This document shows positions 15,673 through 26,249 of a DNA stretch of 64,000 nucleotides, one piece after another. The notes beneath the pieces were generated by a model. The model was not told where the DNA came from and made no database searches. It saw only the letters and a program-made list of their open reading frames with translations. This DNA comes from Escherichia coli. GTDB taxonomy: Bacteria > Pseudomonadota > Gammaproteobacteria > Enterobacterales > Enterobacteriaceae. The translations under genes were made by a program, and so were the position numbers. Each line of letters begins with the position of its first letter. The stretch's first letter is position 1. The stretch lies in NCBI RefSeq assembly GCF_003018255.1, contig NZ_CP027440.1, one strand, 5' to 3'.

Positions 15673-16320
15673 ATGGGCGTAAGAGCGCAACAAAAAGAAA
15701 AAACCCGCCGTTCGCTGGTGGAAGCCGCATTTAGCCAATTAAGTGCTGAACGCAGCTTCGCCAGCCTGAGTTTGCGTGAAGTGGCGCGTGAAGCGGGCAT
15801 TGCTCCCACCTCTTTTTATCGGCATTTCCGCGACGTAGACGAACTGGGTCTGACCATGGTTGATGAGAGCGGTTTAATGCTACGCCAACTCATGCGTCAG
15901 GCGCGTCAGCGTATCGCCAAAGGCGGGAGTGTGATCCGCACCTCGGTCTCCACATTTATGGAGTTCATCGGTAATAATCCTAACGCCTTCCGGTTATTAT
16001 TGCGGGAACGCTCCGGCACCTCCGCTGCGTTTCGTGCCGCCGTTGCGCGTGAAATTCAGCACTTCATTGCGGAACTTGCGGACTATCTGGAACTCGAAAA
16101 CCATATGCCGCGTGCGTTTACTGAAGCGCAAGCCGAAGCAATGGTGACGATTGTCTTCAGTGCGGGGGCCGAGGCGTTGGATGTCGGCGTCGAACAACGT
16201 CGGCAATTAGAAGAGCGACTGGTACTGCAACTGCGAATGATTTCTAAAGGGGCTTATTACTGGTATCGCCGTGAACAAGAGAAAACCGCAATTATTCCGG
16301 GAAATGTGAAGGACGAGTAA
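15673..16320 (+). CDS. fabR: TetR-family fatty acid biosynthesis repressor FabR (215 aa; an upstream in-frame start at 15577 is possible)
   Basis: [55 protein letters not shown] region; ORF extends upstream to 15577. Confidence 0.9.
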
Positions 16321-16679
16321 TGAAACAAGCAAATCAAGATAGAGGTACGCTGCTGCTGGCGTTGGTTGCTGGCTTATCGATTAATGGTACTTTCGCAGCG
16401 CTGTTTAGCTCCATTGTGCCATTTTCTGTATTCCCGATTATTTCCCTGTTGCTGACGGTTTACTGCCTGCATCAACGTTATCTTAATCGCACCATGCCGG
16501 TAGGCTTGCCGGGTCTGGCAGCTGCCTGTTTTATTCTCGGCGTACTGCTGTACAGCACGGTAGTTCGTGCGGAATATCCGGATATCGGCTCTAACTTCTT
16601 CCCGGCAGTACTCTCCGTCATTATGGTGTTCTGGATTGGCGCGAAGATGCGTAACCGTAAGCAGGAAGTTGCTGAGTAA
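16320..16679 (+). CDS. yijD: Inner membrane protein YijD (119 aa)
   Basis: Hydrophobic 119-aa ORF whose ATG overlaps the fabR stop (TAATGA), consistent with the fabR-yijD operon. Confidence 0.85.
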
Positions 16680-16685
16680 TCGGTA

Positions 16686-16718
16686 TCATGCCGGATGCTG
16701 GTGCATCCGGCATGGGTT
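16686..16718. terminator. Hairpin between convergent yijD and trmA (probable bidirectional terminator)
   Basis: Perfect inverted repeat CCGGATGCTGGTGCATCCGG between the two stop codons. Confidence 0.55.
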
Positions 16719-17819
16719 TTACTTCGCGGTCAGTAATACGCCGCACTCCATATGGTGCGTGTAGGGGAACTGATCAAACAGAGCCAGACGTTCGACCTTG
16801 TGCGTCTGGCTTAATGTTTCCAGATTCTTGCATAACGTTTCCGGATTGCAGGAGATATACAGAATACGTGGATACGCCTGCACCATTTTCTCGGTTTCAC
16901 TGTCCAGACCGCTGCGCGGTGGGTCGACAAAAATGGTTTCGCACTGATAACTCTTTAAGTCGATTCCTTGCAGGCGGTTAAACTCGCGTACGCCATTCAT
17001 CGCCTGAGTAAATTCTTCTGCCGCCATACGAATAATTTGTACGTTATCAATATGGTTAGCGGCAATGTTGTATTGCGCGGCAGCGACCGACGGCTTAGCG
17101 ATTTCGGTGGCTAATACCCGATCAAAATTGCGCGCCAGTGCTAATGAAAAGTTACCGTTGCCGCAGTACAGCTCCAGCAAATCGCCTTTTGAGCCTTTGG
17201 TTACGTCCAGCGCCCATTCCAGCATCTGAATATTCATCGCCGCGTTCGGCTGGGTAAAGCTGTTTTCTACCTGACGGTAGATCATCTCTTTCCCTGCGAC
17301 CGGCAGACGTTCATCGATGTAATCCTGGTCCAGCTCGATTTTGGTTTTCGTTGCCCGACCAATCAGATGCACATTCAGATTCTGCGCTCGCAGTGCATCG
17401 CGCAGGGCTTCCGCTTCCTGACGCCACTCATCATCCAGCTTCTTATGGTACAGCAGGGAAACCACCGCCTGATTACTCAGCGTGGTGAGGTAATCAATCT
17501 GGAACAACTTGTGGCGCAGAACGGGATTATTACGCACACCCGCAATCATCGCCGTCATCAACTGGTTGATAAGTTCACTGGCGGCGGGGAAGCTATCCAC
17601 GCGGATGCGGCTTTTGGTTTGTTGATCGAAAATGATGTGATACAGGTCATCGCCATCGTGCCAGATGCGGAACTCCGCACGCATCCGGTAATGACTGACC
17701 GGCGAGCGAAACACTTCCGGAACCAGGTCAGAAAACGGTGCCATCATACTTTGCAAACGTACCACTTTTTCGGCTAACTGCGCTTCATACTGTTCTGTTG
17801 GAAGGTGTTCGGGGGTCAT
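16719..17819 (-). CDS. trmA: tRNA (uracil54-C5)-methyltransferase TrmA (366 aa)
   Basis: [29 protein letters not shown] start, SAM-dependent methyltransferase motifs. Confidence 0.95.
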
Positions 17820-17944
17820 GATGTATCCTGAAAAATTAAAGTACGCGGCGATTGTAGGGATTGCTCATCAGATGTCCAGATCTTGATGAATTCCTATTTG
17901 TGAGCTACGTCTGGACAGTAACTTGTTACAACCTGTAGCATCCA

Positions 17945-18187
17945 CTTGCCGGTCCTGTGAGTTAATAGGGAATCCAGTGCGAATCTGGAGCTGACGCGCA
18001 GCGGTAAGGAAAGGTGCGATGATTGCGTTATGCGGACACTGCCATCCGGTGGGAAGTCATCATCTCTTAGTATCTTAGATACCCCTCCAAGCCCGAAGAC
18101 CTGCCGGCTAACGTCGCATCTGGTTCTCATCATCGCGTAATATTGATGAAACCTGCGGCATCCTTCTTCTATTGTGGATGCTTTACA
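17945..18187 (+). promoter_or_regulatory. btuB leader containing the adenosylcobalamin (B12) riboswitch
   Basis: Leader GCCGGTCCTGTGAGTTAATAGGGAATCCAGTGCGAATCTGGAGCTGACGCGCAGCGGTAAGGAAAGGTGCGATGATTGCGTTATGCGGACACTGCCA... matches the recalled btuB riboswitch; lies directly upstream of btuB. Confidence 0.85.
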
Positions 18188-20071
18188 ATGATTAAAAAAG
18201 CTTCGCTGCTGACGGCGTGTTCTGTCACAGCCTTTTCCGCTTGGGCACAGGATACCAGCCCGGATACTCTCGTTGTTACTGCTAACCGTTTTCAGCAGCC
18301 AGTAAATACTGTCCTTGCACCTACTGATATTGTTACCCGTGAGGATATTCAACGCTGGCAGTCGAAAGACCTCAACGATGTTATGAGTCATCTCCCCGGT
18401 GTAAATATCTCTCAAACTGGTGGAATGGGGACGAGTTCTTCTCTTTATGTTCGAGGCACTGAATCGCGCCATGTTTTAGTGTTGATTGACGGTGTGCCGA
18501 TGGCCCGTGCCGGTATCGACAATGCAATTGATATTAGCCAGTTCCCGGTATCACTTGTACAGCGTGTTGAATATATTCGTGGGCCGCGTTCTGCCGTTTA
18601 TGGTTCTGGTGCCATCGGAGGTGTGGTGAACATTATTACAATGAGTAATGATGAGAAAGCTCAGATCAACGCAGGAATGGGTACAAATGGTTATCAAGCC
18701 TATGATGGGGTAATAAATAAACGTTTTGGCGATACGATGGTAACAGCAGCAGGTGCTTACCAGACGACCAAAGGTTTTAACATTCAGCCTGGCTCACCAT
18801 ACAGTGGTGATAGCGATCGCGATGGATATCGCAACAAACTTTTCTGGGGGGGGCTGCAGCATAAGTTTAACGATAACTTCTCGGGGTTCTTCCGTGGTTA
18901 CAGCTACACAGCTAATAATGATTACGACCAGGGCTCGATGTATGGTTCTGCTACTGGCAACGAAGAAGCTCAGAATTACAACCAGTCCTGGGATACTGGC
19001 CTACGCTATAACTCCGGCATCTATTCGTCTCAGTTAATTGCTAACTATCAACGACTCAAGAATTATAACTACACAAATAATCTTGGTCGTTATGCGGGAG
19101 ATGCCACCCTGGATGACATGGAACAGCGTTATATTCAGTGGGGTAATAGCATTGAGGTAGGGCATGGTGCAATTAGCGGCGGGATCGATTGGAAACAGGA
19201 AAAACTGACGTCCAGCAGCATTACAAAATCAGATGATTACGAACGCGATACCACCGGGTTATACCTGACTGGACAGCAACAGATTTCCAATGTGACTTTG
19301 GAAGCTTCTGGCCGAGAAGATCATGATGAACAGTTTGGCTGGCATGGTACCTGGCAGACAGCTGCTGGCTGGGAGTTTATTGATGGCTACCAGGCAACAC
19401 TTTCTTACGGTACCAGTTTTCTTTCGCCTTCTCTTGGACAGCAATACGGGGCTGCTCGCTTTGCTTCAATTTATGGTCCTGGTATTGCAGCCAACCCAAA
19501 TTTGAAGCCAGAAGAATCTAAACAGTGGGAGATTGGAATTGAGGGGGTAACTGGGACTCTGGATTGGCGGCTCTCAGGATATCGTTATGAAATTCAGAAC
19601 CTGATTGATTATAAAAGCATAAATAATGTCAACCAGTACATTAATGTGAAATCAGCCACGATTAAAGGGCTGGAATGGACGGGAAATATTACAACCGGTC
19701 CTGTTGAACATCGCTTGACGTTACAATATGTTGACCCGCGCGATGATGAAACAGATAAAGTGCTGTACCGTCGGGCAAAACAGCAGGTTAAGTACGAGTT
19801 GACTGGACAAGCTTATGGTTTCGAATGGGACGTATCTTACCAATATATAGGTCAACGATACGACAACGCTTATGACGAGACCTCTGGCTCATCACATACA
19901 GTTAAATTAGGCGGTGTGAGCTTGTGGGATCTTGCGGTTGCGTATCCGGTCACCTCTCATCTAACAGTTCGTGGTAAAATAGCCAACCTGTTCGACAAAG
20001 ATTATGAGACAGTCTATGGCTACCAAACTGCAGGACGGGAATACACCTTGTCTGGCAGCTACACCTTCTGA
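18188..20071 (+). CDS. btuB: TonB-dependent vitamin B12 / colicin E / phage BF23 outer membrane receptor BtuB, divergent mosaic allele (627 aa)
   Basis: ORF 18143..20071; start MIKKASLLTACSVTAFSAWAQDTSPDTLVVTANRF (signal peptide plus TonB box DTLVVTA); C-terminus ...GYQTAGREYTLSGSYTF with terminal Phe; central region differs substantially from the recalled K-12 BtuB. Confidence 0.9.
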   Translation: MIKKASLLTACSVTAFSAWAQDTSPDTLVVTANRFQQPVNTVLAPTDIVTREDIQRWQSKDLNDVMSHLPGVNISQTGGMGTSSSLYVRGTESRHVLVLIDGVPMARAGIDNAIDISQFPVSLVQRVEYIRGPRSAVYGSGAIGGVVNIITMSNDEKAQINAGMGTNGYQAYDGVINKRFGDTMVTAAGAYQTTKGFNIQPGSPYSGDSDRDGYRNKLFWGGLQHKFNDNFSGFFRGYSYTANNDYDQGSMYGSATGNEEAQNYNQSWDTGLRYNSGIYSSQLIANYQRLKNYNYTNNLGRYAGDATLDDMEQRYIQWGNSIEVGHGAISGGIDWKQEKLTSSSITKSDDYERDTTGLYLTGQQQISNVTLEASGREDHDEQFGWHGTWQTAAGWEFIDGYQATLSYGTSFLSPSLGQQYGAARFASIYGPGIAANPNLKPEESKQWEIGIEGVTGTLDWRLSGYRYEIQNLIDYKSINNVNQYINVKSATIKGLEWTGNITTGPVEHRLTLQYVDPRDDETDKVLYRRAKQQVKYELTGQAYGFEWDVSYQYIGQRYDNAYDETSGSSHTVKLGGVSLWDLAVAYPVTSHLTVRGKIANLFDKDYETVYGYQTAGREYTLSGSYTF

Positions 20072-20873
20072 ACCACGTCCCACCGTGCTGGTGTTTGACT
20101 CCGGCGTCGGTGGGTTGTCGGTCTATGACGAGATCCGGCATCTCTTACCGGATCTCCATTACATTTATGCTTTCGATAACGTCGCTTTCCCGTATGGCGA
20201 AAAAAGCGAAGAGTTTATTGTTGAGCGAGTGGTGGCAATTGTCACCGCAGTGCAAGAACGTTATCCCCTTGCGCTGGCTGTGGTCGCTTGCAACACCGCC
20301 AGTACCGTTTCACTTCCTGCATTACGCGAAAAGTTCGACTTCCCGGTTGTTGGTGTCGTGCCGGCGATTAAACCTGCTGCACGTCTGACGGCAAATGGCA
20401 TTGTCGGATTACTGGCAACCCGCGGAACTGTTAAACGTTCTTATACTCATGAGCTGATCGCGCGTTTCGCTAATGAATGCCAGATAGAAATGCTGGGCTC
20501 GGCAGAGATGGTCGAGTTGGCTGAAGCGAAGCTGCATGGCGAAGATGTTTCTCTGGATGCGCTAAAACGTATCTTGCGTCCGTGGTTAAGAATGAAAGAG
20601 CCGCCAGATACCGTTGTACTGGGGTGTACCCATTTCCCTCTACTACAAGAAGAACTGTTACAGGTGCTGCCAGAGGGAACCCGGCTGGTGGATTCTGGCG
20701 CAGCGATTGCTCGCCGAACGGCCTGGCTGTTAGAACATGAAGCCCCGGATGCAAAATCTGCCGATGCGAATATTGCCTTTTGTATGGCAATGACGCCAGA
20801 AGCTGAACAATTATTGCCCGTTTTACAGCGTTACGGCTTCGAAACGCTCGAAAAACTGGCAGTTCTAGGCTGA
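20016..20873 (+). CDS. murI: Glutamate racemase MurI (285 aa)
   Basis: MATKLQDGNTPCLAATPSEPRPTVLVFDSGVGGLSVYDEI start; start lies inside the 3' end of btuB (56-bp overlap, different frame). Confidence 0.93.
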   Translation: MATKLQDGNTPCLAATPSEPRPTVLVFDSGVGGLSVYDEIRHLLPDLHYIYAFDNVAFPYGEKSEEFIVERVVAIVTAVQERYPLALAVVACNTASTVSLPALREKFDFPVVGVVPAIKPAARLTANGIVGLLATRGTVKRSYTHELIARFANECQIEMLGSAEMVELAEAKLHGEDVSLDALKRILRPWLRMKEPPDTVVLGCTHFPLLQEELLQVLPEGTRLVDSGAAIARRTAWLLEHEAPDAKSADANIAFCMAMTPEAEQLLPVLQRYGFETLEKLAVLG

Positions 20874-20896
20874 TTTGGTTGAATGTTGCGCGGTCA

Positions 20897-20946
20897 GAAA
20901 ATTATTTTAAATTTCCTCTTGTCAGGCCGGAATAACTCCCTATAAT
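20897..20946 (+). promoter_or_regulatory. rrnB P1 promoter with AT-rich UP element
   Basis: -35 TTGTCA (20919-20924) and -10 TATAAT (20941-20946) with 16-bp spacer and GC-rich discriminator GCGCCACC; upstream A/T tract AGAAAATTATTTTAAATTTCCT. Confidence 0.85.
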
Positions 20947-21036
20947 GCGCCACCACTGACACGGAACAACGGCAAACACGCCGCCGGGTCAGCGGGGTTC
21001 TCCTGAGAATCTCAACAGAGAAAAGCAAAAAAATGC

Positions 21037-21064
21037 TTGACTCTGTAGCGGGAAAGCGTATTAT
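21037..21064 (+). promoter_or_regulatory. rrnB P2 promoter
   Basis: -35 TTGACT (21037-21042), -10 TATTAT (21059-21064); followed by the boxA antiterminator TGCTCTTTAACAATTTATCA. Confidence 0.8.
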
Positions 21065-21245
21065 GCACACCCCGCGCCGCTGAGAAAAAGCGAAGCGGCA
21101 CTGCTCTTTAACAATTTATCAGACAATCTGTGTGGGCACTCGAAGATACGGATTCTTAACGTCGCAAGACGAAAAATGAATACCAAGTCTCAAGAGTGAA
21201 CACGTAATTCATTACGAAGTTTAATTCTTTGAGCATCAAACTTTT

Positions 21246-22787
<1,542 letters not shown>

Positions 22788-22872
22788 CCTTAAAGAAGCG
22801 TACTTTGCAGTGCTCACACAGATTGTCTGATAGAAAGTGAAAAGCAAGGCGTCTTGCGAAGCAGACTGATAC

Positions 22873-22948
22873 GTCCCCTTCGTCTAGAGGCCCAGGACAC
22901 CGCCCTTTCACGGCGGTAACAGGGGTTCGAATCCCCTAGGGGACGCCA
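22873..22948 (+). tRNA. gltT: tRNA-Glu (UUC) in the 16S-23S spacer
   Basis: GTCCCCTTCGTCTAGAGGCCCAGGACACCGCCCTTTCACGGCGGTAACAGGGGTTCGAATCCCCTAGGGGACGCCA, cloverleaf with encoded CCA. Confidence 0.97.
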
Positions 22949-23132
22949 CTTGCTGGTTTGTGAGTGAAAGTCACCTGCCTTAGTATCTCAAAACTCATCT
23001 TCGGGTGATGTTTGAGATATTTGCTCTTTAAAAATCTGGATCAAGCTGAAAATTGAAACACTGAACAACGAAAGTTGTTCGTGAGTCTCTCAAATTTTCG
23101 CAACTCTGAAGTGAAACATCTTCGGGTTGTGA

Positions 23133-26036
<2,904 letters not shown>

Positions 26037-26129
26037 ACAACGCCGAAGATGTTTTGGCGGATGAGAGAAGATTTTCAGCCTGATACAGATTAAATTAACC
26101 GGCGACAAGCGGGTTAATAAAACAGAATT

Positions 26130-26249
26130 TGCCTGGCGGCCGTAGCGCGGTGGCCCCACCTGACCCCATGCCGAACTCAGAAGTGAAACGCCGTAGCGCC
26201 GATGGTAGTGTGGGGTCTCCCCATGCGAGAGTAGGGAACTGCCAGGCAT
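26130..26249 (+). rRNA. rrfB: 5S ribosomal RNA
   Basis: TGCCTGGCGGCCGTAGCGCGGTGG...CCATGCGAGAGTAGGGAACTGCCAGGCAT, 120 nt. Confidence 0.96.

Follow-up and report, generated by a model that had tools for sequence, protein, structure and literature searches.

The btuB gene in the Escherichia coli window analyzed here (a contiguous stretch of 64,000 nucleotides) carries a strongly divergent core between an adenosylcobalamin (AdoCbl) riboswitch leader and a btuB-murI overlap that are both of resident E. coli type, and this arrangement probably arose when the core was swapped by homologous recombination at conserved ends. From the elements themselves, the breakpoint intervals, and their conservation across genera, all of which are observed directly, we infer a crossover mechanism in which the conserved ends more likely supplied homology for crossing over than acted as a barrier to it.

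A divergent btuB core between K-12-like flanks

We aligned the locus segment by segment to E. coli K-12 MG1655 and summarize the resulting features in Table 1. Identity to K-12 steps sharply at positions 18293 and 19909, from 96 to 100% before the core to 55% within it (740 differences in 1,650 alignment columns) and back to 98 to 100% after it; the core and flanks differ in their proportion of differences with a Fisher P of ∼1e-191. At the protein level, BtuB residues 1 to 35 and 575 to 627 are identical to those of K-12, and residues 36 to 574 are 50% identical. The four differences in the 5′ coding part (18223, 18229, 18232, and 18274) are all synonymous, and the translation retains the TonB box DTLVVTA at codons 26 to 32 and a C terminus ending in SYTF, with an aromatic terminal residue. 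The retained 5′ part includes the sites for Hfq and OmrA that have been reported in K-12 within the initial ∼100 nt. BtuB from the window passes the equivalog models NF007926 (1042.3 bits; cutoff, 836) and TIGR01779 (665.1 bits; cutoff, 599.7), and judged by its sequence the class-B protein is still BtuB, the TonB-dependent vitamin B12 receptor.

Table 1. Features of the btuB-murI locus, in window positions
Feature	Positions	Strand	Description
Promoter-like −35/−10 site	17912-17941	+	TGGACA, 18-nt spacer, TAGCAT; consensus scan, 9/12 matches; same sequence as K-12
Cobalamin (AdoCbl) riboswitch aptamer	17933-18122	+	RF00174 full-length; 188/190 identical to K-12
B12 box in aptamer	∼18088-18106	+	AAGCCCGAAGACCTGCCGG; RF00174 alignment
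Expression platform	18123-18187	+	65/65 identical to K-12
btuB	18188-20071	+	ATG at 18188, MIKKASLL...
btuB 5′ coding part, E. coli type	18188-18292	+	101/105 identical to K-12; signal peptide and TonB box
Replaced (mosaic) btuB core, class B	18293-19909	+	Codons 36-574; plug and most of barrel with surface loops
btuB 3′ coding part, E. coli type, before overlap	19910-20015	+	104/106 identical to K-12
Block of raised cross-genus conservation straddling overlap	19940-20130	+	20-nt bins; proposed 3′ homology arm
Dual-coding overlap, 56 bp	20016-20071	+	Last 18 btuB codons and stop; first 18 murI codons, +1 frame
murI (glutamate racemase), E. coli type	20016-20873	+	285 aa, MATKLQ...; NCBIfam NF002034

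Riboswitch leader and its extension into the coding sequence

The btuB leader gave a full-length match to the Rfam Cobalamin model RF00174 (model positions 1 to 189 of 189) at 87.8 bits (E = 6e-21; gathering score, 31.5). Scanned identically, the K-12 leader scored 87.0 bits, and the leaders of class-C E. coli, two divergent Escherichia, Citrobacter, Salmonella diarizonae, and Klebsiella spallanzanii scored 82.7 to 92.7 bits. In position, length, and model score the element is the same as the K-12 btuB AdoCbl riboswitch, its ribosome-binding-site hairpin is identical, and 253 of 255 leader bases match K-12. The first-pass annotation, made from the sequence alone, had called this leader intact and K-12-like, and the covariance scan confirms at the sequence level an intact E. 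coli-type riboswitch, where "intact" refers to the aptamer and the translational platform. The B12-box segment AAGCCCGAAGACCUGCCGG, in the 3′ portion of the aptamer, aligns to an invariant part of the model and is the same in all genera aligned. The two single-base differences from K-12 leave all base pairs unbroken: 18046 is a hairpin loop position, and 18109 is a P1 position that pairs U-C in K-12 and U-U here, noncanonical in both. A donor origin for these two differences was rejected, since both are polymorphic across E. coli carriers and class C and neither matches the states in other genera.

Minimum free energy and centroid folds of the expression platform alike predict a hairpin at 18157-18182 (GGCAUCC...GGAUGCU), and its 3′ arm covers the ribosome-binding region directly before the ATG; sequestration of the ribosome-binding site by the platform upon AdoCbl binding is known from K-12, whose btuB riboswitch mechanism is well studied (PMC11162775). 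Given its near-identity to the K-12 element, the leader would be expected to bind AdoCbl and repress btuB. Upstream, the promoter-like site implies a transcription start at ∼17947, in agreement with the start at 17945 given by the first-pass annotation. A start at 17945 also agrees with the 241-nt length of the K-12 btuB leader, and judging from that length the site probably functions as the btuB promoter, of the sigma-70 type.

In K-12, riboswitch control of the mRNA level additionally requires coding nucleotides +81 to +210, a C-rich, G-poor stretch proposed as a Rho loading place in riboswitch-coupled Rho termination (PMC11162775). This stretch corresponds to window positions 18268-18397, of which 105 of 130 nt lie inside the replaced core; unlike the leader, then, the downstream part of the K-12 system that serves Rho termination is mostly replaced here. 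The stretch is 73% identical to its K-12 counterpart, although C still exceeds G, with a C/G ratio of 1.5 to 1.7 near +61 to +91 in the window and K-12 alike. Riboswitch regulation as such probably still functions.

The btuB-murI overlap

The first-pass annotation placed the murI start (MATKLQ) 56 bp inside the end of btuB in another frame, and this placement holds: the two start codons are 1,828 nt apart (20016 − 18188 = 3 × 609 + 1), and the overlap has the same length in the K-12 annotation (L001, 5429-5484). Compared with the K-12 btuB-murI pair (b3966/b3967), the frames are the same, the overlap is identical at 56 of 56 bases, the rest of murI is 97.9% identical, and the same 16S rRNA gene follows the pair, leaving btuB upstream of 19910 as the only divergent part. 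MurI matches the NCBIfam equivalog NF002034 at 515.6 bits (cutoff, 408; residues 24 to 283 covered) and differs from K-12 MurI by two amino acids. The family profile starts at residue 24, which places the residues encoded by the overlap in an N-terminal extension ahead of the conserved enzyme core.

The murI ATG at 20016 is conserved, with a MAT or MAI start in all 43 genomes compared. An upstream in-frame ATG at 20004 (MRQSMATKLQ; 68-bp overlap) was rejected as the start, since this codon is ACG in most other genera and in one E. coli-labeled genome. A crude sigma-70 consensus scan found no plus-strand promoter-like site in 19000-20015 able to serve murI and thus gave no support for a promoter of this gene within the conserved block. 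The gene is essential, and its overlap with btuB explains the absence of a btuB deletion from the Keio collection (10.1101/2025.12.01.691526).

We compared the 3′ end of the locus with 41 non-Escherichia Enterobacteriaceae genomes. In this set no other 56-nt segment of 19600-20873 is as conserved as the overlap, which has a mean identity to the window of 95.4%; it is ∼95 to 100% identical across most Enterobacteriaceae genera, and murI identity across other genera is ∼72 to 80% (∼78%). Identity in 20-nt bins is 0.81 to 0.95 in the block at 19940-20130, 0.2 to 0.7 upstream of it, and 0.70 to 0.85 downstream, and identity at third-codon positions, including synonymous sites, is likewise elevated to either side of the overlap. 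Variation in the block is too low for covariation analysis of structure. Most changes within the overlap fall at btuB third positions, yielding 18 MurI N-terminal variants versus 8 BtuB C-terminal variants, and an identical BtuB C terminus is encoded in 24 of 43 genomes. Because of this pattern of changes, and because the MurI profile begins only at residue 24, constraint on the overlap comes mainly from the BtuB C-terminal strand.

Edges of the exchanged tract

Toward the 3′ end, allele-specific sites run as far as 19909, and at 19931-19943 the window and K-12 share bases that are absent from class C, class D, Escherichia sp. MOD1-EC7003, and every other genus; the 3′ crossover therefore lies in 19910-19930, ∼85 to 106 bp upstream of the murI ATG. 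At the 5′ end, dense divergence begins at 18293 (codon 36), three codons past the TonB box. At many third-codon positions in 18249-18292 the window has the K-12 state where other genera differ, and therefore the 5′ crossover lies in 18233-18292. Breakpoint mapping thus bears out the first-pass claim that the mosaic boundary lies upstream of the overlap, and divergence does not run through the overlap. Farther downstream, position 19963 is private to the sublineage of the window and 19960 is polymorphic among E. coli.

The edges shift slightly among class-B carriers. The tract in strain Z1323CEC0013 spans only 18301-19897, with K-12 states at 18293/18295 and 19900-19909, and other carriers have non-K-12 states out to 19942 or 19960. 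Detectable divergence stops short of 20016 not only in the window but also in all Escherichia allele classes that we examined, reaching 19943 in E. coli class C and 20014, two bases before the murI ATG, in Escherichia sp. MOD1-EC7003.

Distribution of btuB classes in E. coli

Among 5,426 complete E. coli genomes, btuB cores fall into three discrete classes: K-12-like (∼5,050 genomes), B (283), and C (∼89). The class-B core is at least 99% identical to that of the window in 282 genomes and 95 to 99% identical in one; carriers share cores that are 99.6 to 100% identical to one another, and the class C core is 69% identical to class B. Probes of 321 bp over both junctions match all 282 to 283 class-B E. 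coli genomes end to end at at least 98% identity. Carriers are very different strains, including the enteropathogenic strain EPEC E2348/69 and many animal isolates. The junctions are common to carriers and the edges vary by only a few sites, so the class-B allele spreads within E. coli as a unit whose edges are nibbled by later recombination.

Riboswitch and btuB-murI overlap are textbook E. coli features, and btuB mosaicism is already catalogued. The first-pass annotation regarded its observation as known biology, and the literature agrees for both the overlap (10.1101/2025.12.01.691526) and the mosaicism (PMC12175518). Mosaic E. coli outer membrane protein genes described by Cao et al. (2025) include fhuA, lamB, and ompA/C/F, and their supplement lists btuB among 21 mosaic outer membrane protein families, with four highly variable regions and few sequence types; the main text does not discuss btuB (PMC12175518). 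BtuB in the window has their HVR1_1 type GSPYSGDS (PMC12175518), but here all of codons 36 to 574 differs, well beyond the loops. Apart from this one supplement entry, our literature search found no direct account of btuB allele classes or breakpoints in main texts.

Related cores in other lineages

The closest core outside typical E. coli is that of SCPM-O-B-8794, which is labeled E. coli and stands in our collection as a separate species representative. Its core is 96 to 98% identical to that of the window and its flanks are 83 to 97% identical, so that a class-B core sits beside a murI that is 7 to 8% different. SCPM-O-B-8794 has diverged over the whole locus, and its own boundaries are unreadable. 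Because the core is closer than the flanks, it has been exchanged between this lineage and E. coli after their split, in either direction.

The next nearest cores, from Citrobacter, Kluyvera, and Salmonella diarizonae, have 73 to 78% nucleotide identity. Citrobacter, Kluyvera, Klebsiella, and Salmonella were each rejected as the direct donor, the best core identity among them being 78% at the nucleotide level, and no near-identical core with divergent flanks was found outside Escherichia. In genera with a related core, the aptamer is 57 to 89% and murI 72 to 80% identical to the window, and the flanks of the window are of E. coli type, not of donor type. Exchanges are also apparent between these genera. 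Between S. diarizonae and C. amalonaticus, core identity is 93% and murI identity 81%, with a 3′ edge that could lie anywhere in 19950-20071 and is inseparable from the overlap; for K. spallanzanii and Kluyvera intermedia the corresponding values are 87% and 78%.

What sets the boundaries of the swapped core

In btuB, codons 36 to 574 have been replaced by those of another, strongly divergent allele encoding this receptor, and we propose that the replacement took place through homologous recombination. Crossovers would fall in two stretches conserved across Enterobacteriaceae that serve as homology arms, a 5′ stretch comprising the expression platform, signal peptide, and TonB box and a 3′ stretch comprising the last BtuB beta-strands and the murI overlap block (∼19940-20130), and subsequent recombination within E. 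coli would have displaced both borders slightly, by a few sites. Riboswitch and overlap would then be resident DNA at the outer limits of the exchanged tract, with the position of the boundary not forced by the overlap. In favor of such arms we counted the similar edges in independent exchanges (class C, MOD1-EC7003, and S. diarizonae/C. amalonaticus; K. spallanzanii/Kluyvera). Against them we counted that the conserved block may reflect selection on dual coding and the murI translation start alone and that we found no donor outside Escherichia to fix the direction or number of transfers.

The first-pass annotation had instead reasoned that the overlap is constrained and that the boundary must for this reason fall upstream of it. 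On this account, selection on a dual-coding overlap with an essential gene would bar foreign sequence and force the boundary upstream of 20016, and such selection would fit the end of detectable divergence before 20016 in the window and every Escherichia class examined, the status of the overlap as the most conserved stretch of the locus, and the essentiality of murI with the missing Keio deletion. We nevertheless consider it unlikely to have set the boundary. Donor overlaps are 95 to 100% identical to that of E. coli in most genera, which leaves almost nothing to exclude or to show; because a foreign overlap would be nearly identical to the resident one, it would be neither harmful nor visible, and its import would be neither counterselected nor detectable. 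An identical BtuB C terminus in 24 of 43 genomes belongs to the same picture. The actual boundary lies 85 to 106 bp farther upstream than selection on the overlap needs. Divergence in MOD1-EC7003 comes up to 20014, and the 3′ edge in S. diarizonae/C. amalonaticus may fall within the overlap itself. The MurI side is not tightly constrained, as its first 18 residues differ considerably from genus to genus (18 variants) and are not part of the family profile. In SCPM-O-B-8794, a class-B core coexists with a murI that is 7 to 8% different. The first-pass interpretation is in this sense partly supported, being right about the location of the boundary and wrong about its cause.

Alternatively, there may have been no recent transfer at all: the cores could be old alleles maintained by balancing selection from phages and colicins, with flanks homogenized by ordinary recombination and breakpoints that mark where linkage to the selected core decays. 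The coexistence of three core classes in E. coli, the slight variation of edges among carriers, the lack of a donor with at least 80% nucleotide identity outside Escherichia, and the presence of class B in strains as different as EPEC E2348/69 and many animal isolates are all compatible with this account. It is nonetheless improbable, since 45% divergence between classes in one species far exceeds divergence in place, and cores shared between genera far more closely than murI (93% versus 81% and 87% versus 78%) require real transfers. The near-identity of class-B cores likewise suggests that they share a fairly recent ancestor within E. coli.

Our preferred reading, a core swapped at conserved ends, could extend beyond E. 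coli. As a more tentative possibility, btuB may be a family-wide receptor cassette with two fixed homology arms, in which cores move between genera and regulation and murI stay in place. The 5′ arm would be the stretch from the expression platform through the TonB box, and the 3′ arm would span ∼190 nt straddling the overlap, conserved even at synonymous sites. The exchanges seen for Salmonella with Citrobacter, for Klebsiella with Kluyvera, and for different clades of Escherichia would be instances of such movement. The K-12-type core is 52 to 57% identical to the cores retrieved from other genera, a set that was found with class-B peptide patterns and is biased toward relatives of class B.

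Implications for btuB in E. coli and the Enterobacteriaceae

In practical terms, the exact limits of the exchanged receptor segment are 18293-19909. The riboswitch and overlap are useful only as markers of where the swapped piece starts and ends, and the overlap, being almost unchanged throughout the family, cannot serve to place a breakpoint. If btuB is a family-wide cassette, the exception would be the K-12-type core, although it is in the majority, and class B would be the core that tracks the genus-level divergence of murI. Because the replaced segment includes most of the Rho-termination stretch, class-B carriers (∼5% of complete E. coli genomes) may regulate btuB mRNA differently. T5-like phages (BF23) and the E and A colicins use BtuB as their receptor, and the btuB allele class is for this reason relevant to the prediction of phage and colicin host range.

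Conservation around the btuB-murI overlap and the murI start

Synonymous-site conservation across genera rises within the 56-bp out-of-frame overlap of btuB and murI and in approximately 60 nt on either side of it. A simple scan of the plus strand for a sigma-70-like promoter found none in 19000 to 20015. We also considered an upstream, in-frame ATG as an alternative murI start, but its use is unlikely, because most other genera have ACG in its place, as does the Escherichia coli-labelled SCPM-O-B-8794 (L006; L-numbers denote comparison loci retrieved from other genomes). Downstream of murI lies a complete rRNA operon, ordered 16S, tRNA, StyR-44 match, 23S, and 5S; for this reason draft assemblies of related species mostly end right after murI.

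Features at and downstream of the btuB-murI overlap (window coordinates)
Feature	Position	Remark
Elevated synonymous-site conservation	19940-20130	
In-frame ATG upstream of murI	20004-20015	12 nt 5' of the murI start; would add residues MRQS
rRNA operon	21246-26247	3' of murI
tRNA	22873-22945	
StyR-44 match	23026-23125	directly before 23S

Allelic variation in btuB

Only part of the genomes with the class-B core (the window's divergent btuB core, codons 36 to 574) carry the synonymous changes relative to K-12 at 18223, 18229, and 18232 (+36, +42, and +45 of the coding sequence), which lie in or adjoin the stem-loop (+18 to +44) and Hfq-protected site (+45 to +50) reported for K-12. Two further alleles are annotated as frameshifted: the chimeric btuB of strain HS-01 (L004), which is class B only to approximately 18640 and 70 to 98% identical to K-12 beyond that point, and the class-B btuB of strain Z1323CEC0013 (L057), with a 1-base deletion at 18846. 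Yokenella regensburgei ATCC 49455 has two btuB-like genes on separate contigs (L050 and L053; 76% and 58% amino acid identity to the window core), and only L050 adjoins murI.

Exchange and divergence of the btuB core

Salmonella diarizonae and Citrobacter amalonaticus (L014/L020) share 93% identity in the btuB core versus 81% in murI, and Klebsiella spallanzanii and Kluyvera intermedia (L007/L009) share 87% versus 78%; in both pairs, btuB cores have clearly been exchanged across genera. Within the locus corresponding to 15793 to 21101, trmA, yijD, and murI of SCPM-O-B-8794 are 3 to 17% diverged from the window, and its class-B core is diverged by only 2 to 4%; this strain looks like a cryptic Escherichia lineage sharing its btuB core with E. 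coli.

The class-B core (18293 to 19909) is 73 to 78% identical to those of Citrobacter, Kluyvera, and S. diarizonae, roughly the level of murI. The K-12-type core, the majority type in E. coli, reaches only 52 to 57% identity with the cores of all other retrieved genera (L007 to L052), a retrieval skewed to class-B relatives. Subject to that skew, these comparisons suggest that the odd btuB core may be the K-12 type rather than class B.
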